A stretch of 64,000 nt of DNA, from the IMG/VR virus record IMGVR_UViG_3300013123_000002; one strand, given 5' to 3'. Positions 3,107 to 55,674 of this stretch are shown here, piece by piece (position 1 is the stretch's first letter; each line of letters starts with the position of its first letter). The notes below the pieces were generated by a model that saw only the letters and a program-made list of their open reading frames with translations, was not told where the DNA came from and did not search any database. A program made the position numbers and the translations under genes. This DNA comes from an uncultured virus (IMG/VR IMGVR_UViG_3300013123_000002). Taxonomy: Duplodnaviria > Heunggongvirae > Uroviricota > Caudoviricetes.

Positions 3107-3151
3107 CTTGTCTTGTGTTTTTTGTTTATTTATTAGCGAGCTCTAGGATTT

Positions 3152-23577: not shown

Positions 23578-23627
23578 CTTTATTGGCTCTATTTTTGTTA
23601 TTTATTATCGCCGGAAAACTGATCAAA

Positions 23628-28484: not shown

Positions 28485-30620
28485 TTATTCGGTCTTTGCG
28501 AGACCAGAAGTACCTGAGGTTCCCGCTCCCATCATCATTGATTGTGTGTAACCTGGGTAAAGCCCTGGATCTTCTGGGTGTTCATTAGCAAATTTCACAG
28601 CTTCTGCGATACGTCGATCACGCTCTTCTTCCGACTTTTTAGCTTCCCTCAGTATCTTTTCTTCCTTTTCCGATATAACTACGACCGTTTGTACATCATC
28701 CTCCTCAGCAGATTCAACGTTCAATAACGGATCGATCGATTCGTTTACCGCTGAGCTATCGATCTCTACTACTGGAATGCCTGGCGATTTGAACTGAGGT
28801 AAGGTGGATTCGTTCAATTTTTCCATCAGGTCTTGGTTCATGCTGTAAAAGTCAGAGTGTATCTCCTGAGGAGCTGCTGACTTAAAACCTGCGTAATCAC
28901 CGTTCTTGACGGTGTTCATTATGACGTCCTTTATGCCAGCAGATGGAAGTTCCATCAGTCTAATGTCCTTCTTCAGGTTTAAGTTTCGTGAACGTTTCTT
29001 AGCTAATTCGATCTGCAGAGCTAGATCTCTTATCCTGCTTCTGTTAGCAGCGATGATGTTAGGTTCGTAGTTCGGCTTTATTATCTTTAACAAGCTTTCT
29101 ACTTCTCCGTCCGAAACGATAACGTAGCCTTCGATAAAACTGTGGTGAACGTTTGCTAGTCTCTGCAACCCGTTTATCACGGTTTCCTTCTTGAACGGCC
29201 GAGCTTTGCTGGTGTTTCCTGGGTGGACGCACACCATCAAGCACGGCAACCCGTTCTCGTTGAACAAGCTCTGTGCAGATTTTATGTGTCCTGGGTGTAT
29301 TGGTTGAAAGTCAGAGATGATCAAATTTACAGGTTTAGTTTTCCTATCTTCCACCTGCTTGAATGTCTCAAAGTAGCCCGGATCCTTTTCTTCACCGACG
29401 AACTCCTTGAACGTTGGGAAGTAATTTTCGTAGATTGAATCTCCCATGATTACTCTGCTAATTTTGTCGATCTGATCGTTAAGGTTCTCTTTCATCTCTT
29501 TGGTAAAGAACGATGAGTTCACCTTGATCTTTTTCTTTCTGAACATGTTGATGAAGACTCGGTAAATTTCCTTGAAATTAGGGTTCGATTCGATCATCGA
29601 TGTTACTCTAGGGTTGTTGATGAGACCGAAATTCACGTTGAAATCGTCTCTTTGCAGAAAATCAGGTATCTGAATGTCTAGGTCCCTGTACTTTTCTCCG
29701 AATTCCTTCACGAATTCCAAGTATATGTGATTGACTAGAGAAACGTAACGTTCCTCGTAAGTCTCACCATTCATTGGAATTTCTCTTAACTCGCTAACCG
29801 GGTATTGTTCGATGAAGTTCATGAGGTCGATCACGATGATCCAGATGTAGTCATCACTCTTCTTCCTATCCTCAGCAGACCGCTTCTTTGCTCCTTCCTG
29901 AAAAGTAGGATCTATCAGTTTTGCTAGGAACACCGGTTCTTCTCCTCTAGCTGACTCATCGTAAAACCTGAAAACTATTCCCTCAATGTCCTTGTCCAGA
30001 GAATCCTGGAGGAACGATTTTTCAAGAGATGGGTTTAGGATCGAAACGATGTACCTAGTAAAAGATGTGGTCTTGAACTTTTCTACCAATTTGTCGAATG
30101 ATGTGTATATGAATTCGTGTATCTGTTTCTTTTGTTCTGGGCTTAATTTGCCCCGGAAGATGATCGGAGGTCTTTCTATTCCTAGAACGTCTGCCCATTT
30201 GTTGAGTTCTTCCCTGCTCTGTATGGTTTCCTTTACTTCTCCGTTTTTCTTGAGAAGGTGTATGTAGCTCAAGATCAGGTGATTCTTGGGAAGATTATCG
30301 TACGATATGGTCTGGGGTTTTTTGTCGGAAAAGTATTCCATTCCGAAGTAGTAATTCGGCGGAATGTTTGGCGTGATCTCGCTCTTCTTGCTTTCCAAGT
30401 ATGAAATAGCAGGCTCAAAGTACTTGCTAAGGACTCTGTCCACGTACGATATTGGGCCGTTTCTCTTGAAGTACTCTATCTTTCCATGATCGTCTTTCAT
30501 CAAACCGAAAAACGCTCCGTCCATCTTCTCGTTGACGATGACCGTCTTGTTGAGTAAGTTTTCGACGAAATCCTGTCCGTATTTGTCTAAGACGTCCTTT
30601 AAATGTGCTAAACCTGCCAT
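28485..30620 (-). CDS. RNA-ligase-like adenylation domain fused to a HIGH-type nucleotidyltransferase domain
   Basis: NEKMDG (motif I), FGMEY, IEGIVF and LAKL, then FQPIHPGH. Start reassigned to MAGL at 30620. Confidence 0.72.
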   Translation of the reverse strand: MAGLAHLKDVLDKYGQDFVENLLNKTVIVNEKMDGAFFGLMKDDHGKIEYFKRNGPISYVDRVLSKYFEPAISYLESKKSEITPNIPPNYYFGMEYFSDKKPQTISYDNLPKNHLILSYIHLLKKNGEVKETIQSREELNKWADVLGIERPPIIFRGKLSPEQKKQIHEFIYTSFDKLVEKFKTTSFTRYIVSILNPSLEKSFLQDSLDKDIEGIVFRFYDESARGEEPVFLAKLIDPTFQEGAKKRSAEDRKKSDDYIWIIVIDLMNFIEQYPVSELREIPMNGETYEERYVSLVNHIYLEFVKEFGEKYRDLDIQIPDFLQRDDFNVNFGLINNPRVTSMIESNPNFKEIYRVFINMFRKKKIKVNSSFFTKEMKENLNDQIDKISRVIMGDSIYENYFPTFKEFVGEEKDPGYFETFKQVEDRKTKPVNLIISDFQPIHPGHIKSAQSLFNENGLPCLMVCVHPGNTSKARPFKKETVINGLQRLANVHHSFIEGYVIVSDGEVESLLKIIKPNYEPNIIAANRSRIRDLALQIELAKKRSRNLNLKKDIRLMELPSAGIKDVIMNTVKNGDYAGFKSAAPQEIHSDFYSMNQDLMEKLNESTLPQFKSPGIPVVEIDSSAVNESIDPLLNVESAEEDDVQTVVVISEKEEKILREAKKSEEERDRRIAEAVKFANEHPEDPGLYPGYTQSMMMGAGTSGTSGLAKTE

Positions 30621-30633
30621 GCTTTTGATTTTG

Positions 30634-31191
30634 TTAGTCCAGTGGTCCGAAATCACCGCGACTCATTGCTTTTCCAAATTCAGTCGAAGAGATGGAATCC
30701 AGAGATGCGCTTACTCTAGTGACCGCGTTTCTAAGAGTTTCATCATTTTTGAGTAAATCGATAAGTTGCGGAAGTTTAAAGTCCTGTTCAGATTTTGGTA
30801 ATCCACCTACTTCTTCGAGACGTTTTTCCAATTCTCTGTACTTTAACCCTTTGGTGGACACGTTCCACACGTAGAATACAGGTTTGTCCTTTCCGTCATA
30901 ATGTTTCCTGTAAAATTCTTCAATCTCGTTCAGCTTCTTTTCCATCTCAGATAACCCAGATTCTTTAGTGAACATCCATGGTTCTCCAGATTTTCCGTTT
31001 CTGCTGAGTTCGATTACTCGACTTGCGTGACCGTGTATATCACTCGGGTAATTGAATTCTTCTAAATTAGGACACATCATCACCAATTCTGAAAAAAGAG
31101 GAAGGAACTCTTCGAGAGAAATTCCTCTGACTTTAGATTCGGCTGACTCGTTTACGAACTCTTTGAAATCTTTCGTGAACTTTTTAAGCAT
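30634..31191 (-). CDS. putative internal head protein
   Basis: N-terminal TKDFKEFVNE; late promoter at 31212-31218. Confidence 0.7.
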   Translation of the reverse strand: MLKKFTKDFKEFVNESAESKVRGISLEEFLPLFSELVMMCPNLEEFNYPSDIHGHASRVIELSRNGKSGEPWMFTKESGLSEMEKKLNEIEEFYRKHYDGKDKPVFYVWNVSTKGLKYRELEKRLEEVGGLPKSEQDFKLPQLIDLLKNDETLRNAVTRVSASLDSISSTEFGKAMSRGDFGPLD

Positions 31192-47316: not shown

Positions 47317-47525
47317 AACAAAAATAGTATTAGTCCAACTATAATCAGGAAGAATACTATACTCAAAAAAATTGCAACTTTCCCATAATCGAACCGGTAG
47401 TACACTCTGTACCCTGGACCAATGATGCCATTATTTCCTGACACCGAGTAAAATTTGCGAACAAATCTTTTCCACAAGGATGGTTTTCTTTCCCAAGGCA
47501 ACCTATTTAAGTTAGCATGTTTCAT
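47313..47525 (-). CDS. small membrane protein
   Basis: C-terminal TM helix; ATGA overlaps on both sides. Confidence 0.65.
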   Translation of the reverse strand: MKHANLNRLPWERKPSLWKRFVRKFYSVSGNNGIIGPGYRVYYRFDYGKVAIFLSIVFFLIIVGLILFLL

Positions 47526-49522
47526 TTCTGTATGATTAGGGTGTCACCAAACTCACTTTTCGTGATGACTAGGTGATCACCAGGCCGAACATTACTGTCA
47601 ATATAGGCTTCGGCAATGACATCCTCTAGGTGTGTCTGAATAGCTCTCTTTAGAGGACGCGCTCCGAATTTTGAATCGTAACCCTTGTCGATCAAGAATT
47701 CCTTTGCTTCTTCGGTTAGCTCGAACGAGTACCCATTTTCGGAAACTCTGTTCTGTAGGTCGACCAGTTCGATTTCCACGATTGACCGTATGTGTTCCTT
47801 AGCCAACAAGTTGAAAGTTATGATGTCGTCAATACGGTTGATGAATTCCGGGGGGAATTTTCTGCTGACTTCTTTCCTGAGAACATCGTTAGCTGCTTCT
47901 CTCTGTTGTTCTACCGACTTGGTAGCAAAACCTATGCCCGTTCCAAAGTCCTGAAGGACTCTAACCCCTATGTTCGACGTCATGATGATGACTGTGTTCT
48001 TAAAGTCAACCGTTTTTCCCTGGCCGTCAGTCATTCGGCCGTCGTCCAGAACTTGCAGAAGAGTGTTGAAGATAGCTGGATCAGCTTTCTCGATCTCATC
48101 TAGCAGAATGACAGAGTAAGGACGCCGGCGAACCTTTTCTGTTAACTGACCGCCACTTTCGTAACCTACGTATCCTGGAGGAGCTCCGTTCAACCGACTG
48201 GTCGTGAACTTTTCACTGTACTCGGACATGTCTATGCGAATCAGAGCATCTTCCGATGAGAATAGGTATTTAGCAAGCTGCTTTGCTAGTTCGCTTTTCC
48301 CGACTCCGCTCGGTCCGATGAACAGGAAAGTTCCGATGGGTTTTTTCTTTGACTTTAAGCCGGCCCTCGATCTTTTTATAGCTCTAGTTAATTTGTGAAT
48401 GGCATCGTCCTGTCCGACTATTACTTTTCTGAGAGAAGGTTCCATTGAGGAAAGTTTCTCTATCTCGGTTCCAGTCATCCGGTTGACAGGTATGCCTGTG
48501 ATCGTTGAGACAAGGTCAGCGATGTCACCATCAGTCACAGATAAGCGATTTTCGGTCTTAGCAAGCGATTTTTCCCAATCGCTCTTTGCTTTTGTTATCT
48601 GATCTGCTGCTTCGAGAGCTTCGTCCCGTAGCTTGGCAGCCGCTTCGTAATCCTGGGAGTCAACAGCATTCTTTTTCTTCTTCAGAATGGCAGTCAGCTT
48701 GTCCTCAAGCTTTTTCATCTTGTCCGGAACGACAACGCCGTTCACGTGAACCGTTGCGCCAGCTTCGTCCATTAGGTCAATTGATTTATCCGGTAAGAAC
48801 CGGTCAGCTATGTACCTTTCGCTCAGAGTAACGCACGCGTCCAAAGCTTCAGCATCGTACTTAACTGCGTGGTGATCCTCGTACTTGCTCTTTATGTTTT
48901 CGAGGATTATTCGAGTCTCTTCGGCTGTCGTTGGGTTGACCATTATCTGCTGAAACCTACGGTTCAGGGCCCCGTCCTTTTCGATAGAAAGTCTGTACTC
49001 TTCAGTCGTTGTTGAACCGATGCACTGGATCTCTCCTCTGGCCAAAGCGGGTTTTAATATGTTAGCTGCATCAAGCGATCCGCTAGCTGCGCCTGCTCCG
49101 ACGATAGCGTGAACTTCGTCGATGAACAGTATGATGTTTCCTGATGACTGAACTTCCTGGATGATCTGCTCCATGCGTTCCTCAAACTGACCGCGGTACT
49201 TCGTACCGGCGACCAAATTTGCAAGCTCAAGAGCAACTATTCGTTTTCCGAACAGTGCTCTGGAACAGGTTCGGTTGACTATTCTCATAGCCAAACCTTC
49301 AACTATCGCAGTTTTTCCAACTCCTGGTTCTCCGATCAGCAAAGGGTTGTTCTTTTTTCTTCGGGAAAGGATTTGGCTGCACCGCTTTATCTCTTCTGCT
49401 CTTCCGACTACCGGGTCCAATTTTCCTTCAGCTGCTAGCTGGGTTAGGTCCTTACCGAACGAGTCAACCAGTGGAGTTTTAGTTGCTGGAGATGGTTGTT
49501 TTGTTTGCGACATCTGTTTCAT
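47522..49522 (-). CDS. clpC: ClpC-type AAA+ chaperone lacking the Clp-N domain
   Basis: LDPVVGR, GEPGVGKT, IDEVH, UVR motif DYEAAAKLRD, GPSGVGKS, LDEIEKA, GIGF loop and GARPL. Confidence 0.92.
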   Translation of the reverse strand: MKQMSQTKQPSPATKTPLVDSFGKDLTQLAAEGKLDPVVGRAEEIKRCSQILSRRKKNNPLLIGEPGVGKTAIVEGLAMRIVNRTCSRALFGKRIVALELANLVAGTKYRGQFEERMEQIIQEVQSSGNIILFIDEVHAIVGAGAASGSLDAANILKPALARGEIQCIGSTTTEEYRLSIEKDGALNRRFQQIMVNPTTAEETRIILENIKSKYEDHHAVKYDAEALDACVTLSERYIADRFLPDKSIDLMDEAGATVHVNGVVVPDKMKKLEDKLTAILKKKKNAVDSQDYEAAAKLRDEALEAADQITKAKSDWEKSLAKTENRLSVTDGDIADLVSTITGIPVNRMTGTEIEKLSSMEPSLRKVIVGQDDAIHKLTRAIKRSRAGLKSKKKPIGTFLFIGPSGVGKSELAKQLAKYLFSSEDALIRIDMSEYSEKFTTSRLNGAPPGYVGYESGGQLTEKVRRRPYSVILLDEIEKADPAIFNTLLQVLDDGRMTDGQGKTVDFKNTVIIMTSNIGVRVLQDFGTGIGFATKSVEQQREAANDVLRKEVSRKFPPEFINRIDDIITFNLLAKEHIRSIVEIELVDLQNRVSENGYSFELTEEAKEFLIDKGYDSKFGARPLKRAIQTHLEDVIAEAYIDSNVRPGDHLVITKSEFGDTLIIQK

Positions 49523-49527
49523 TTTGT

Positions 49528-50163
49528 TTAATCCCACCAGCCCTTCATACCAGAGCCGTCGAACCATTTATACCAACGGTTCTCATCTTTTTTCTCTTCC
49601 TCAGTCAAATTTTCTTCGACTTTTTTGTAGTCTTCGTAGTTCTGCCCGTGAAGTATCTCGAAGAGCTCTTTCCAGGTGTCTTTTTCCAACTTTCTGGACA
49701 GTGCATAGATCTCAGCATTATCTTTCTCTTCCTGTTCGGTAGCTTTTGACACAACTTTCGTCCAGTTTGGATTCTTTTCATCGCTTTCGAAAGAAATCCA
49801 ATCGGACACTTTTTTACCGAGCTGTTCTTCAGCTACGCTGACAAAATCATCCTCAATGTGATAGTTTAGGATCTCTACAGCACGACGCATCTTTTCGATC
49901 TTCTTTAGGCGAGATTCGTCAACTTCGTGACCGTACTTTTCGATATAGTCTGCAGTTGTTGTGATGTTCGTGCGAAGGAGTCTGAGAGCTCCGTGAGTGT
50001 CCCACGGATAAGTGTGCCAAAGGTCCTTTCTGTAAGTTCTCAGGTTCTTAAGAAAGCGAGGCACGTCGTACCTCAGGCAATCCCAAGCCTTCCAAAACCA
50101 CCTCTGACGATTGCGTAAGCGCTTTAGGCTCTTTGCGAAAGTGCCGGTTAGTACAACGTCCAT
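49528..50163 (-). CDS. hypothetical phage protein
   Basis: 211 aa ending in GWWD. Confidence 0.75.
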   Translation of the reverse strand: MDVVLTGTFAKSLKRLRNRQRWFWKAWDCLRYDVPRFLKNLRTYRKDLWHTYPWDTHGALRLLRTNITTTADYIEKYGHEVDESRLKKIEKMRRAVEILNYHIEDDFVSVAEEQLGKKVSDWISFESDEKNPNWTKVVSKATEQEEKDNAEIYALSRKLEKDTWKELFEILHGQNYEDYKKVEENLTEEEKKDENRWYKWFDGSGMKGWWD

Positions 50164-52960: not shown

Positions 52961-53356
52961 TTACTTTGTCACTCCGAATATCATCGCCAGTATTATTCCA
53001 GCGATTGCAGTGAAGACTATCCAAATGATCTTAGTAACAGTGTCCTTAAACGACATCATGTCTTTGTGTTCTTCTATAAACTTGTCGAAGTCCTTTTCCT
53101 CGGATTCTTGCTTCTTTCTGAATTCTGTGTTCTTGTTGACCCTAACGATAATTCCGTCTTCCGGATCCAGTAACTGTCTCTTTATCGCACGAAGATCTTC
53201 CTTCATTCCTTCTTGAGACTGATCGATCCGCTCTATTCTCTCTTGAATTGCTTTTAATTCGCCGTTCGGTAGTTGCTTCTTAATGACTTCTAATGCTGTT
53301 AGAATGTCATTCATCATGTTATCCACTGAATCGTTAGTGCCACGAGAACCTGTCAT
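52961..53356 (-). CDS. coiled-coil protein with a C-terminal TM helix (holin-like?)
   Basis: Helical N-terminus and a single C-terminal hydrophobic helix; late transcription unit. Confidence 0.6.
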   Translation of the reverse strand: MTGSRGTNDSVDNMMNDILTALEVIKKQLPNGELKAIQERIERIDQSQEGMKEDLRAIKRQLLDPEDGIIVRVNKNTEFRKKQESEEKDFDKFIEEHKDMMSFKDTVTKIIWIVFTAIAGIILAMIFGVTK

Positions 53357-53393
53357 TTCGTGTACGAAGTTATTTTTAGTAAAAAGTAGTTGA

Positions 53394-53672
53394 TTAAGCG
53401 GTTGGCTCTTCGGTTTCTTCTCCCGATGGAGCAGGCTCTTCGGATCCGTCTTCCGGACCGTCTAGCAAGGTAACTTCGTCTTGTCCAGGTTCAGTAGCTG
53501 GAATTTCGTCAGTCATTTCCGGTGTTTCCGGTTCAGCAACGATAGGTTTGGTTGGAAGTTCTGGCTGTTCCCCAATCGTAGGAACTGACATTCCACCGTC
53601 CTGAGCGGCTGTGAATTCTTCAAAACTTAAGACCTTCTTAGCTCCGCTGCTAGTTAAACTCATTTCTGCCAT
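53394..53672 (-). CDS. acidic putative head protein
   Basis: KVLSFEEF motif and E/P-rich tail; late promoter at 53694-53700. Confidence 0.68.
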   Translation of the reverse strand: MAEMSLTSSGAKKVLSFEEFTAAQDGGMSVPTIGEQPELPTKPIVAEPETPEMTDEIPATEPGQDEVTLLDGPEDGSEEPAPSGEETEEPTA

Positions 53673-53742
53673 GTTGGTTATGCAATTTTGAGTTATTTAT
53701 ACGGAAAGAGGAACAATTTGAGCCTCGCTCTTGCACAAATTG

Positions 53743-54618
53743 TTAATTGTTTCTAGCGGTTCCGCACGTTGGGCAGAAGGCTTCACCGGATCTCCACCTA
53801 CGGCCGCAACCTGTGCAGTACGAGCGAATCTCGCCAATCTCTGCGGGTTTTTGGCTTTCTGGAAGGATCTTCACTGTGTAGTAAGCGCAAGCGTAGAAGC
53901 TGAAATCTCCGTAAGTATCGACCAGCTTCTGGTTTGAGCGTTCACCCTTTTCGATTCTACCTGTCTCTATGTTTAGAGAGGATTTTGTCAACTTTAGGCC
54001 AATCGGTATTTTATCAGAAAAACTGTCCTCACAAGCCAGGTTCATGTTAGCTGAGTAATTAGCTGACATTCCGATGTTGTCTCCGAGACCTGCGCTTGGC
54101 GTGCTGTTGAAATAACAGTGGTCAGACGTGAAGGTCGGATTGACGGTCGGATTTCCGGTAGTTCCGCCGCAAATTGTCGGTCCATTAATAGTGATGGAAC
54201 CGTTTCCGCAGAACCAATTTTTCGGTTGGACGATCTCATCGTAGAACTCGACTGTTACCAGTCCGTTCTTTGCGATTGCAGCTCTTCCTTCAGCTGAATT
54301 TTCTGCTTCGTAGGTCGTGAATTTGAACTTACGATCCTCTTCCAAGAACCGTTCGAGGTAACCTCTTTGGCCAGGATTCACGACGATACCTCCACCTGAC
54401 ACGGAAACTCCGTTGATGGAAATTTTTGCGAGAACTCTGTTTGACCTTGGATTCCAAAGCTCAATCTCAAAGGAGGTTCCGTCCTTCATGTAAACGTTTT
54501 CTCCGTAAAGCTTTAGACGATTTCTACTCACGGTGACGTGAGCGGTTGGAGTTGGATTTGATGTTGAGTAATAGTATACTCCGCTCGAATAGTACGAGCT
54601 TGATTGATTTAGGTACAT
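53743..54618 (-). CDS. hypothetical protein with a beta-rich domain and a C-terminal CxxC-x10-CxxC zinc ribbon
   Basis: FEIELWN...LERF...ETGRIEKG...YCTGCG...FCPTCGT; likely ATG at 54618. Confidence 0.8.
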   Translation of the reverse strand: MYLNQSSSYYSSGVYYYSTSNPTPTAHVTVSRNRLKLYGENVYMKDGTSFEIELWNPRSNRVLAKISINGVSVSGGGIVVNPGQRGYLERFLEEDRKFKFTTYEAENSAEGRAAIAKNGLVTVEFYDEIVQPKNWFCGNGSITINGPTICGGTTGNPTVNPTFTSDHCYFNSTPSAGLGDNIGMSANYSANMNLACEDSFSDKIPIGLKLTKSSLNIETGRIEKGERSNQKLVDTYGDFSFYACAYYTVKILPESQKPAEIGEIRSYCTGCGRRWRSGEAFCPTCGTARNN

Positions 54619-54635
54619 AGTTAGCTGTGTTATTT

Positions 54636-54716
54636 TTGCAAATCTCATCGCGACCGTTCGATCGATCGCTCAAGGGCCCTTGGACCCGAGACTCACAGAG
54701 CGAGGCTCTATGTTCC
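54636..54716 (-). ncRNA. candidate structured cis-regulatory RNA leader
   Basis: Hand folding gives a hairpin plus a three-way junction in a GC-rich leader between a late promoter and the start codon. Confidence 0.5.
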
Positions 54717-54743
54717 AATAGTATTTATACGATGGTTGGAAAA

Positions 54744-55073
54744 TTAGTTTTGCCGAGAAACTAGCTTAACGAAATCGCTAATAGTGTAACACAGTACAGC
54801 TTTCTGATCGTAGTGTTCCAGTGTGAATTCTATGATCTCGTCGATCTGCGATTCGCTGCAGTAAATTCTCACAGGGATCATACGGTCGTTGAACTGTTCG
54901 TTATCTTCGCTGACCCACTGCCCCTTTGAAGTTTTGAATATGGTCAGTCCTCCAGCAATCGACCGAACTTTATCGTCCCACTGGTGGTGATAAGCAAGGT
55001 CGAACTTATTACCAGCATTGTCATGGTACGGGACAAGAATTTCCCAAAGATACTTTCGGCTAGCTATTTTCAT
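54744..55073 (-). CDS. hypothetical protein (PII/ferredoxin-like?)
   Basis: GGLT...GQW...MIPVRI...YDQKAV. Confidence 0.7.
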   Translation of the reverse strand: MKIASRKYLWEILVPYHDNAGNKFDLAYHHQWDDKVRSIAGGLTIFKTSKGQWVSEDNEQFNDRMIPVRIYCSESQIDEIIEFTLEHYDQKAVLCYTISDFVKLVSRQN

Positions 55074-55674
55074 CGAACACAGATTTGAACAGGGTTCGTA
55101 ATGCAGATAAGGTCACTGTGCTCTTTGCGCTGTAATAAAGTTTGTCATCGTCTGCTTCGCCGAACATTGCAAATATTGACTCAGCATGAAATTTTTGGAG
55201 TTTGTCGACTGTTCGCTTAGCGTACATGTACTTTCCTTCCAGGTGGGTCTCTATCTCGTTAAGCCAGTCAGCCATGACTTTGTTATGAGTTGTGAACCTT
55301 CTTTTTTCCTTCTTCCACTGATTTCCGCACTTGTTGCAGTGATTGACCTCGTTTGTGTCAATTTCCATCTCACCGTAGATACTTCCGCACCCCAAGAAAA
55401 AATCGCCGCCAACGTGACCATCACCTTGAACTCTCTGAATCTTGTCGACCACGTCAAGATTTCCGTCAGCTCCGCACTTTGGACAGGTGCTGTTGTGCAG
55501 GTTTACGTAAGACCGATTAGATTCGTCTTCTTCGGCTTCCTTTACTTTGGCCATTCCTCTGAGCTCTTCCAACTCTTTCTGAACTATAGCTCTTTGTTCA
55601 GCATTCTGCTTGTTACCTGCTTTAGCCAAGCGGTTTGTGCGCTTGACCCACCAAATTTTTAACGATTTGAACAT
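55060..55674 (-). CDS. zinc-finger protein
   Basis: CPKCG...HCNKCGNQW. Confidence 0.72.
   Translation of the reverse strand: MFKSLKIWWVKRTNRLAKAGNKQNAEQRAIVQKELEELRGMAKVKEAEEDESNRSYVNLHNSTCPKCGADGNLDVVDKIQRVQGDGHVGGDFFLGCGSIYGEMEIDTNEVNHCNKCGNQWKKEKRRFTTHNKVMADWLNEIETHLEGKYMYAKRTVDKLQKFHAESIFAMFGEADDDKLYYSAKSTVTLSALRTLFKSVFDENS

Follow-up and report, generated by a model that had tools for sequence, protein, structure and literature searches.

The 64,000-nt stretch analysed here (the window, from the uncultured virus record IMGVR_UViG_3300013123_000002 of IMG/VR) contains a gene of an unnamed family whose flanks are complementary to each other, and it raises the question of whether these repeats delimit a mobile element or are the two ends of an mRNA that pair around the open reading frame. 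The initial annotation had entertained both, an end-paired mRNA with a structured leader and a mobile cassette inserted at a promoter. The first part of that reading is retained after comparison with homologous loci, and the second is given up. The best explanation is that the region is the complete transcription unit of one huge-phage gene, with an mRNA that carries a conserved cis-acting RNA architecture.

Layout of the unit and its repeats

The gene and both arms of the inverted repeat lie on the minus strand, with the following features:

54722-54729, minus strand: promoter-like box TATAAATA upstream of the leader (enrichment and alignment of relatives)
54697-54716, minus strand: 5' arm, GGAACA (54716-54711), UA, GAGCCUCGCUCU (54708-54697) (repeat search and homologues)
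54694-54712, minus strand: P0, alternative local 5' hairpin, 54712-54705 with 54701-54694 (fold)
54637-54697, minus strand: three-way junction (covariation and fold)
54697-54688 with 54646-54637, minus strand: P1 (covariation and fold)
54687-54683 with 54678-54674, minus strand: P2 (covariation and fold)
54669-54663 with 54656-54650, minus strand: P3 (covariation and fold)
within 54637-54697, minus strand: junction linkers UUGA and GAU
start at 54648, minus strand: alternative in-frame upstream ATG, 301 aa (ORF list)
54619-54636, minus strand: A-rich stretch leading up to the ATG, unpaired and lacking a visible Shine-Dalgarno sequence (fold)
53743-54618, minus strand: coding sequence, 291 aa from the conserved MY start (ORF list)
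53712-53744, minus strand: alternative local 3' hairpin AACAAUUUG / CAAAUUGUU (repeat search and fold)
53710-53731, minus strand: 3' arm, AGAGCGAGGCUC (53731-53720), AAAU, UGUUCC (53715-53710) (repeat search and homologues)
53694-53701, minus strand: promoter-like box TATAAATA belonging to the gene that follows (53394-53672), the second 'direct repeat' copy

The exact 12-nt inverted repeat described initially (53720-53731 / 54697-54708) was recovered by repeat search, and its GGAACA/TGTTCC extension (53710-53715 / 54711-54716) is evident in the sequence. Together the arms form a closing helix whose segments of 12 bp and 6 bp are separated by an internal loop, with the 3' arm starting 11 nt past the stop codon, and the transcript start is predicted near 54716 from its spacing to the box. 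The window contains three pairs of exact 12-nt inverted repeats within 1.2 kb, fewer than the 6.7 found on average, and 17 at most, when the sequence was simulated 40 times with a first-order Markov model, and the 12-nt repeat by itself is therefore within chance; that it is real and beyond chance follows from the comparison of homologous loci, the window alone being insufficient. Each arm copy can also fold locally, as had been suggested. The 5' hairpin CAUAGAGC-CUC-GCUCUGUG has a free energy of -10.2 kcal/mol (z -2.33, equalled by 6 of 200 shuffles), and the 3' hairpin AACAAUUUG/CAAAUUGUU, whose loop contains the core of the 3' arm, one of -9.6 kcal/mol (z -1.67, equalled by 12 of 200).

The identical 10-mers reported to bound the unit (TATTTATACG at 53694-53703 and 54722-54731) are both present by repeat search, and these 'direct repeats' appear to be two promoter-like boxes. 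TATAAATA is enriched in the window (5 copies against 1.18 expected, a number reached in 0 of 100 shuffles), and on inspection at least 10 of the 16 WWTAAATA boxes in the window sit 13-45 nt upstream of an ORF start. In relatives the leader-side box reads GTTAAATA, TATAAATA or TATATAAT (alignment columns 9-17) and that of the downstream gene GATAAATAA; the two 10-mers differ from each other there, with only the ATAAATA box kept, and the proposal that they are the ends of a cassette is not sustained. TAGAGCC, which lies near the promoter box at 23585, was considered as a shared start motif and rejected, with 5 copies against 5.1 expected, and its complement is absent after the gene at that box.

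The structured leader and the closing helix among relatives

Homologues were compared in 80 of the 309 viral stretches found, and the comparison set comprises 53 non-redundant homologous loci. The 101-nt leader of the window folds exactly as it had been drawn (-33.5 kcal/mol, z -2.63, equalled by 3 of 200 shuffles), in the order 5' hairpin, three-way junction and unpaired A-rich tail to the ATG. The 3' boundary of the junction lies 18 nt ahead of the start codon, which is outside the junction in this fold, and the stretch before the start codon is A-rich in all 53 alignment rows. Covariation, which the initial annotation had proposed as a check, is strong in the leader: across the 53 loci 91.2% of junction cells pair, a share that drops to 37.7-47.1% when the partners are slid. 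The covariation score of 0.671 was attained in 0 of 500 shuffles and does not exceed 0.193 for slid partners, and 19 of 21 junction pairs show changes on both sides. P1 and P3 were recovered independently by RNAalifold. G-U pairs are frequent in the junction (UG, for example, in 47 rows at columns 58/116), which indicates selection at the RNA level, and the unpaired nucleotides UUGA and G/A-A-N are conserved.

The suggestion that this is an undescribed RNA agrees with Rfam 15, which gave no match at E <= 5 across 53000-55500 and none over the leader at E <= 1 in the loci of 8 relatives; by these searches the leader junction appears to belong to no described RNA family. A model of the leader has a single match in the 131-kb record and further matches upstream of the homologous gene of three other huge phages (E 3.5e-10 to 2.6e-6), with scores below significance (E about 1) in Lak megaphages. 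Leader and gene are kept together down to 33-37% protein identity.

Pairing of the two ends is likewise preserved in homologues, with differing sequences. Unrestricted RNAduplex runs on long flanks over-extended and were messy, and we used instead counts of contiguous complement and of pairing in an anchored register, the register being taken from two alignments made independently. A stretch of at least 9 nt in the leader has its perfect complement within 45 nt past the stop codon in 37 of the 53 loci, but in only 2.2% of shuffled flanks, and the 3' complement begins 4-13 nt past the stop codon in 37 of 53. The arm sequences differ between lineages (at least 9 arm types) with complementarity kept; 81.1% of 444 cells pair in register against 25.9-45.9% when shifted, and at 11 of 12 arm positions both sides have changed. 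For 10 of 16 arm types the best-ranking 3' arm is the cognate one, with 0 of 10,000 permutations reaching the observed sum, and a 462-kb phage with 37% protein identity has a 12-nt pair of its own. Compared with locus L005, the leader (100 of 100 positions) and the 3' UTR (35 of 35) are identical, with the codons of conserved residues identical in only 73%, and by this comparison both UTRs are under purifying selection.

End pairing is not essential to the gene, because 16 of the 53 loci are without a 3' arm. In 13 of 15 rows, made up of the two armless clades and L080, a local 5' hairpin of -5 to -8.6 kcal/mol occupies the same place, and L039 and L053 have weak local hairpins only (-2.7 and -0.2 kcal/mol). 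Mostly, it is the pairing of the 5' end beside P1 that is preserved. Folding of whole mRNAs gives 11-21 long-range pairs in all 16 arm-bearing lineages (18 in the minimum-energy fold of the mRNA described here) against 0-1 in 3 of 3 armless ones, and in the full-length folds the ORF is a loop that both ends close, one of the arrangements put forward initially. The preference for end closing is thermodynamic in these predicted folds, the arm duplex having -13 to -38 kcal/mol against -1 to -10 kcal/mol for the local 5' hairpin. RNA-library contigs of relatives (about 90-95% alike) cover the gene (runs X20-X23, without ends or strand), and one contig crosses the predicted start, in a type of library in which DNA may be present and whose depths do not allow genes to be ranked. 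In one of the RNA-library runs, adapter sequence at 53772/53779 is seemingly an assembly artefact.

The encoded protein and the position of the gene

The start codon of the 291-aa frame corresponds to M11 in the 301-aa numbering, the nearly invariant methionine of the conserved MY start in the homologue alignment; the position of the upstream ATG gives a 4-codon uORF in L006, L008 and L020. The protein combines an Ig-like beta-sandwich with a variable insert that is disordered (residues 143-222 in the same numbering) and with a C-terminal Zn ribbon, in which C278, C281 and C292 are invariant among homologues and C295 nearly so, and basic and aromatic residues are conserved between the two CxxC pairs. 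As to the earlier designation as a Zn-ribbon gene, these pairs are conserved, the protein itself scores 15.4 for DZR, under the Pfam cut-off of 27.3, and precomputed PF13240 matches are found in many homologues. The family has more than 520 members, all without a name, and the relatives that do have names are huge phages. No informative family was found in profile searches of PHROGs, Pfam and NCBIfam, Foldseek gave no match in the PDB at E <= 1e-3, and a wide structural search gave generic Ig-like sandwiches only (Z <= 6.6). Profile search of PDB sequences gave Zn-ribbon matches alone, none significant, including Csl4 and bL32 (E 0.36-0.64), the ESM Atlas gave unnamed viral clusters only, and a DNA search of a phage collection gave no match to the region.

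In all 27 close relatives with enough flank, the gene lies approximately 400 nt upstream of the same downstream gene and in the same orientation relative to it, and all surveyed loci holding that downstream gene agree on orientation. The gene and its leader are each single-copy in the 131-kb record, profile searches of the ORF and its neighbours found no transposase or mobility family, in agreement with the lack of a transposase motif reported initially, and no recombinase was recognised among the neighbours tested. A unit bounded by inverted and direct repeats could be a cassette with terminal inverted repeats and TATTTATACG as its duplicated target at a promoter, or, the 12-nt repeat being within chance for the window, an accident. 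However, the gene is in place in 27 of 27 close relatives, among which no empty site was seen, and mobility is therefore unsupported; nor do the single copies, the missing transposase and the lost identity of the 10-mers fit it. A chance repeat is excluded because the arms covary across lineages. Both ideas are hardly credible, and already refuted as far as these data go. The arms could instead act in DNA, as sites for a recombinase or another protein, for example at the ends of an invertible on/off segment, and they do flank the leader and gene with the promoter box outside. Nearly all cells of the closing helix are Watson-Crick pairs (224 of 240), and with 4 G-U against 4 A-C cells wobble asymmetry cannot separate RNA pairing from a DNA inverted repeat. 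But assembled genomes have the segment in one orientation at 27 of 27 loci, the neighbours tested include no recognised recombinase, and the arms fit precisely into the interval from the promoter box to the terminator. Sites of 10-13 bp are short for inversion, and most armless lineages have a local hairpin in place of the distal partner, which fits RNA and not paired DNA sites. We consider a role in DNA very unlikely.

Readings of the predicted closed message

We regard the RNA structure as real with near certainty; function included, the reading that is on balance probable is a module acting in cis, either to stabilise the mRNA or to control its expression. Transcription would start a few bases past the TATAAATA box, and the first approximately 20 nt of the transcript would be the 5' arm, followed by the P1-P3 junction, an A-rich ribosome-loading stretch and the ORF. 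The 3' arm would then pair with the 5' arm, and in this lineage the helix would run straight into P1; with the closing helix continuous with P1, the whole ORF would loop out of one compact RNA domain. The extreme 5' end and the 3' UTR would be kept double-stranded with the ribosome-loading region left open, and the double-stranded ends may shield the message against end-dependent ribonucleases and in this way determine its lifetime and yield. Coupling to translation is possible, the start of the 3' arm being within reach of a ribosome on the stop codon. In this account the transcript ends, the stabilising function and the action of selection on the closing helix as RNA rather than as DNA are inferred.

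Stabilisation does not account for the restriction of the module to this gene in the record, the arms of types B, E and G, at only 10-13 bp, also speak against it, and the conserved unpaired junction nucleotides, not obviously needed by a simple stabiliser, hint at a specific ligand or protein. The compact domain of closing helix and junction could serve as an operator for the Zn-ribbon protein that the gene encodes, or for a different phage protein, and binding beside the ribosome-loading stretch would repress or tune translation, an arrangement with which the joint conservation of leader and gene to 33-37% protein identity, the presence of the leader nowhere else in the record, the junction nucleotides and the basic and aromatic residues of the Zn ribbon would agree. 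We nonetheless think such autogenous control rather unlikely: RNA binding by the protein is hypothetical, the fold is a generic Ig-like sandwich (Z <= 6.6), the profile matches to the RNA-binding Zn ribbons of Csl4 and bL32 are insignificant, and the junction stops 18 nt before the start codon without overlapping it. Another role for the 5'-3' helix would be as a stalk cut by RNase III; in rRNA precursors and at phage T7 sites the flanks of a long RNA pair over a distance in this manner. A putative cut could free the cistron from longer late transcripts, in the way of the 16S rRNA flanks, and arm type A, to which the window belongs, has a helix of 17-21 pairs (almost uninterrupted in L020), no terminator after the 3' arm and the next promoter close by; the RNA-library contig that crosses the predicted start could be read-through from upstream, or DNA in the library. 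RNase III stalks are, however, usually at least 20 bp and cleaved, whereas many lineages here have only 10-13 bp, types B, E and G have arms of only 10-14 nt followed by an ordinary terminator, and with the 5' arm at the predicted transcript start a 5' cut is unneeded, so that we consider processing unlikely. Types C, D and F, on inspection, have the arm or its extension directly followed by at least 4 T in 9 of 9 representatives, with no separate downstream terminator detected, and types B, E and G use a separate terminator hairpin in 12 of 12. This would be expected if the leader stayed near the polymerase, or was kept available in some other way, and the 5' arm were the upstream half of a split intrinsic terminator, the 3' arm and U-run ending transcription only when paired with it, and the long-range helix ending or sealing the transcript. 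If true, a promoter-proximal RNA would fix the 3' end of its own message, and, more broadly, a discrete, structured RNA domain acting as a ribonucleoprotein would carry the ORF as an insert in its loop. This is improbable. In type A the arm is not followed by a U-run, pairing with a partner at a distance of 900 nt is unlikely, on kinetic grounds, to outpace the polymerase, the intergenic regions here are AT-rich and often contain T-runs, and in L075 the same bases can fold, by eye, as a short local terminator hairpin.

The complement of 12 + 6 bp in the UTRs of one unit is of the kind found in hok, hbs and icaR. In hok-family mRNAs the 5' and 3' UTRs pair at long distance (tac/fbi) and close the full-length mRNA, and a local metastable 5' hairpin can form before the 3' partner is transcribed (PMC9841398). 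UTR-UTR pairing closes the full mRNA here too, with a local 5' hairpin as alternative in both, but hok encodes a toxin of approximately 50 aa under the control of the antisense RNA Sok, whereas here there is a 291-aa ORF and no antisense RNA is seen; Rfam gave no match to hok, Sok or any other family, and an ORF of 291-301 aa is not a small toxin. The closed form of hok hides the Shine-Dalgarno sequence, whereas here the ribosome-loading stretch is open in the leader fold. The hok folding pathway was reportedly established by covariation. According to PMC5737220, a 14-bp interaction of the 5' UTR with the 3' UTR in the Bacillus subtilis hbs mRNA modulates RNase Y cleavage. This precedent has a helix comparable in size and position, but in a host gene, one whose Shine-Dalgarno sequence is strong, and with a measured effect; in the present case function is inferred, the leader is an unrelated three-way junction, and the pairing is backed by covariation in many lineages. 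The 3' UTR of Staphylococcus aureus icaR mRNA pairs with its own 5' UTR (PMC3868564). The paired part differs here, being the extreme 5' end, upstream of the junction, and not the ribosome-loading stretch. For icaR the 3' UTR is said to pair with the ribosome-binding site and block translation.

We found no described phage example of such an mRNA or leader in literature outside subscription journals. To our knowledge only a handful of end-paired bacterial or phage mRNAs is known, hok, hbs and icaR among them, with covariation support for end pairing in the hok family alone. The pairing described here bridges approximately 900 nt, and compensating changes preserve it in many huge-phage lineages; the leader fold, without an Rfam match, travels with one gene family to approximately 35% protein identity. 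The lineages form a natural variant series, with a distal partner, a local hairpin, a terminator or a U-run only, that lets the role of end pairing in stability, translation, processing and termination be compared, and the module is a candidate RNA family for the annotation of huge-phage genomes.

Organization of the Zn-ribbon gene and its surroundings

The viral record that contains the window is 131 kb long and estimated to be about half complete, with genes for head, portal, protease, helicase, primase and split polymerase functions. The Zn-ribbon protein has more than 520 homologues, none of them named and many on contigs of 200-300 kb, and its relatives in the phage collection are all in megaphages, namely the Prevotella Lak phages and uncultured phages of 460-735 kb (31-48% identity). 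These relatives, together with leaders that lack a Shine-Dalgarno sequence, suggest a Bacteroidota host. Elsewhere in the window, a 681-aa ORF (47522-49567) has a very strong match to an ATP-dependent protease family (phrog_4871, E 3e-244), an unusual cargo for a phage, and a 723-aa ORF (28485-30656) weakly matches RNA ligase (phrog_548, E 1.5e-7); the latter may matter if phage RNA ends are joined, and no link between it and the Zn-ribbon mRNA was found.

The structure model of the protein (mean pLDDT 70.9) has a beta-sandwich formed by residues ~30-140 and ~223-265 and a C-terminal Zn ribbon. The two sandwich halves are well conserved among homologues and flank an insert (residues 143-222) that the model leaves disordered; it abounds in S, T, N and G, and both its length and its sequence are hypervariable. 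A conserved MY pair (M11 of the window ORF) is the start in most homologues. An upstream ATG (54646-54648) lies within a conserved GAUGAG at the base of P1, one of the three leader helices; depending on the length of an A-run, it is either in frame with the gene (the window and the homologous locus L007) or opens only a four-codon ORF, MSKK (L006, L008 and L020). Because of the common MY start and these four-codon ORFs, we take the start to be at 54618. The unit is arranged as follows.

Features of the Zn-ribbon unit in the window
54729-54722, minus strand: promoter-like box TATAAATA, upstream of the leader
54716-54697, minus strand: 5' arm GGAACA-UA-GAGCCUCGCUCU, after the promoter-like box
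Between the 5' arm and the A-rich stretch, minus strand: GC-rich folded leader, as read from the sequence
Ending at 53743, minus strand: A-rich stretch followed by the ORF, as read from the sequence
53731-53710, minus strand: 3' arm AGAGCGAGGCUC-AAAU-UGUUCC, 11 bases past the stop codon
53701-53694, minus strand: TATAAATA box of the next gene, within the second copy of the direct repeat

A repeat search recovered the 12-nt inverted repeat, the 10-nt direct repeat and the local 3' palindrome described in the initial annotation. The inverted repeat does not stand out when the window is judged by itself: three exact 12-mer inverted pairs lie no more than 1.2 kb apart, and 40 simulations average 6.7 such pairs.

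There are 16 copies of WWTAAATA in the window (for example at 3134, 10974, 23606, 31219, 37159, 45877, 53701 and 57212), and by inspection against the ORF list at least ten precede a same-strand start codon by 13-45 nt, so that they are plausible promoters with short leaders; the leaders that follow are A-rich and without a Shine-Dalgarno sequence. WWTAAATA probably represents the phage's own promoter class. The box of the Zn-ribbon gene, ~104 nt from the ATG, is exceptional among those in the window. In L007, a relative on a 253-kb contig, five tRNA genes (1936-2325) are immediately upstream of the leader, with ~20 nt between the end of the last tRNA and the promoter-like box.

The genes at 52961-53356 and 53394-53672, one encoding an acidic protein of 92 aa and the other a coiled-coil protein of 131 aa with a membrane segment at its C terminus, keep their place downstream of the Zn-ribbon gene across the clade that includes the window. 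The 131-aa neighbour, used as a query, finds 49 loci, 28 of them at 61% identity or more. The 27 of these with enough upstream sequence all have the Zn-ribbon gene ~400 nt upstream, with its orientation unchanged. The remaining 21 loci (47% identity or less) have no Zn-ribbon gene within 2.5 kb, and are too distant to be read as empty sites. The ORF and the neighbours tested include no recognisable mobility gene, and the two 10-mer boxes differ from each other in relatives. We reject the proposal that the unit is a mobile cassette with terminal repeats.

A conserved three-way junction in the leader

Folding of the leader alone (-33.5 kcal/mol, z -2.63) reproduces the 5' hairpin and three-way junction drawn in the initial annotation, and leaves the final 25 nt before the ATG unpaired. 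Of 309 homologous loci found, 80 were collected and the ORF was located in 79 (L026 lacks the search motif); these reduce to 53 with distinct flanks, whose leaders can be aligned from the promoter-like box to the ATG. RNAalifold predicts P1 and P3, with compensatory changes in 18/18 predicted pairs. When P2 is included, standard pairs occupy 91.2% of 1,048 cells versus 37.7-47.1% with partners slid by 1-3 columns, the covariation score is 0.671 versus at most 0.193 for slid partners and is reached by none of 500 shuffles, and 19 of 21 pairs have changed on both sides. G-U pairs are frequent, as expected of RNA. The leader is thus a conserved RNA structure, and the junction is clearly under selection at the RNA level.

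A covariance model of the leader has a single match in the 131 kb of the phage (E 2.6e-17), and three other huge phages (33-37% protein identity) have a match immediately upstream of their homologous gene (E 3.5e-10, 1.8e-8 and 2.6e-6); there is no significant match in two Lak phages. No Rfam family matches the leader.

Both UTRs are conserved far more than synonymous sites. The window and L005 have identical leaders (100/100) and 3' UTRs (35/35), with 191/262 codons identical at conserved residues; L008 (49% protein identity) retains 79/103 leader and 29/36 3' UTR positions. Contigs of relatives, mostly 90-95% alike, cover the gene in four RNA-library runs from two studies; as these contigs show neither ends nor strand, may derive from DNA and have depths that cannot rank genes, we conclude from them only that RNA libraries include sequence of this region. 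Two contigs of a relative from one run end at 53772-53779 with sequencing-adapter sequence attached, probably an assembly artefact and less plausibly an abundant fragment end.

Predicted pairing of the transcript ends

A perfect complement of at least 9 nt between the leader and the first 45 nt past the stop codon is present in 37 of the 53 loci, compared with 2.2% for shuffled 3' flanks. The arm sequences vary among lineages, and each of the 5' arms GAGCCTCGCTCT, TAGAGCCTGAC, AAAGCCTCGTGT, TGAAACCTTGTTA, TTAGAGCCTCTC, GACCTTGTGGTT and CTGGGGAGCC, given as examples, is exactly complemented past the stop; a 462-kb phage has an arm pair of its own, TCTCACTTTGTT / AACAAAGTGAGA. With the leader and 3' flank aligned independently (42 of 53 loci could be anchored), 81.1% of 444 cells of the closing helix are paired in register versus 25.9-45.9% at shifts of 1-4, and both sides have changed at 11 of 12 positions. 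Of 16 distinct 5' arms, 10 pair best with their cognate 3' arm, and none of 10,000 permutations reaches the observed sum. The pairing covaries, and the suggestion that the two ends could pair around the whole ORF holds for the arm-bearing homologues. In folds of entire predicted mRNAs (870-1,073 nt), 11-21 pairs join the first 30 to the last 48 nt in 16/16 arm-bearing lineages tested, with the same number expected from pair probabilities, versus 0-1 in 3/3 armless lineages; the window mRNA has 18, and its closing helix is continuous with P1.

Two separate protein clades include members with a type C leader and its 3' arm (CTGGGGAGCC): L037 and L049 nest within type B beside L068, and L075 groups with type F. 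This distribution suggests that flanks and coding regions have been exchanged by recombination.

The 3' arm is absent from 16 of 53 loci, comprising two clades and L039, L053, L080 and L048. In both clades and in L080 the place of the 5' arm is taken by a local hairpin (-5 to -8.6 kcal/mol), and the corresponding hairpins of L039 and L053 are only weak (-2.7 and -0.2 kcal/mol); in arm-bearing lineages the distal duplex is worth -13 to -38 kcal/mol and the local hairpin is often only weak. Most lineages therefore keep a paired 5' end next to P1, its partner strand being either local or 900 nt distant. Arm-bearing lineages occur on both sides of the midpoint root of the protein tree, and the armless state requires four changes, at least two of them forced by well-supported branches; loss of the 3' arm looks likelier than repeated gain, subject to the placement of the root.

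Possible roles of the paired ends

The arms could act as a DNA-level repeat, and wobble pairing in the closing helix is silent on this point, with 224 of 240 cells Watson-Crick and four each G-U and A-C. Four observations favour RNA: the arms lie exactly between promoter box and terminator, the closing helix in the window lineage runs on into P1, a local hairpin replaces the arm in most armless lineages, and a single orientation is kept in 27/27 assemblies. We leave a DNA-level role a small probability. Another rival is an operator bound by the gene's own Zn-ribbon protein. Family searches name no function for this protein, and structure searches return only generic Ig-like folds.

The paired ends could also form an RNase III stalk, or the two arms a split terminator, and the sequence past the 3' arm differs among the arm types. 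Types B, E and G have an ordinary terminator hairpin and U-run there (12/12 representatives). By inspection, types C, D and F have a run of at least four Ts directly past the arm or its extension (9/9), with no separate downstream terminator detected in these nine, and the arm of L075 can on its own form a short, local terminator hairpin. Type A, that of the window, has neither terminator nor T-run (15/15), and the next promoter-like box follows within ~15-25 nt. The 3' arm starts 4-13 nt past the stop codon, which from footprint sizes is within reach of a terminating ribosome.

Pairing of 5' and 3' UTRs within one mRNA is a known kind of element; the leader fold, the huge-phage setting and the breadth of covariation appear new. 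Searches of the non-subscription literature turned up no description of the leader or of an end-paired phage mRNA. Among measured cases the nearest parallel is the 5'/3'-UTR helix of hbs (PMC5737220), and in architecture it is the tac/fbi closure of hok with its early 5' hairpin (PMC9841398). The best supported explanation is a cis-acting module in which the 5' terminus and the 3' UTR would be held double-stranded with the ribosome-loading stretch left open, an arrangement that would shield the message and determine how much of it is produced.
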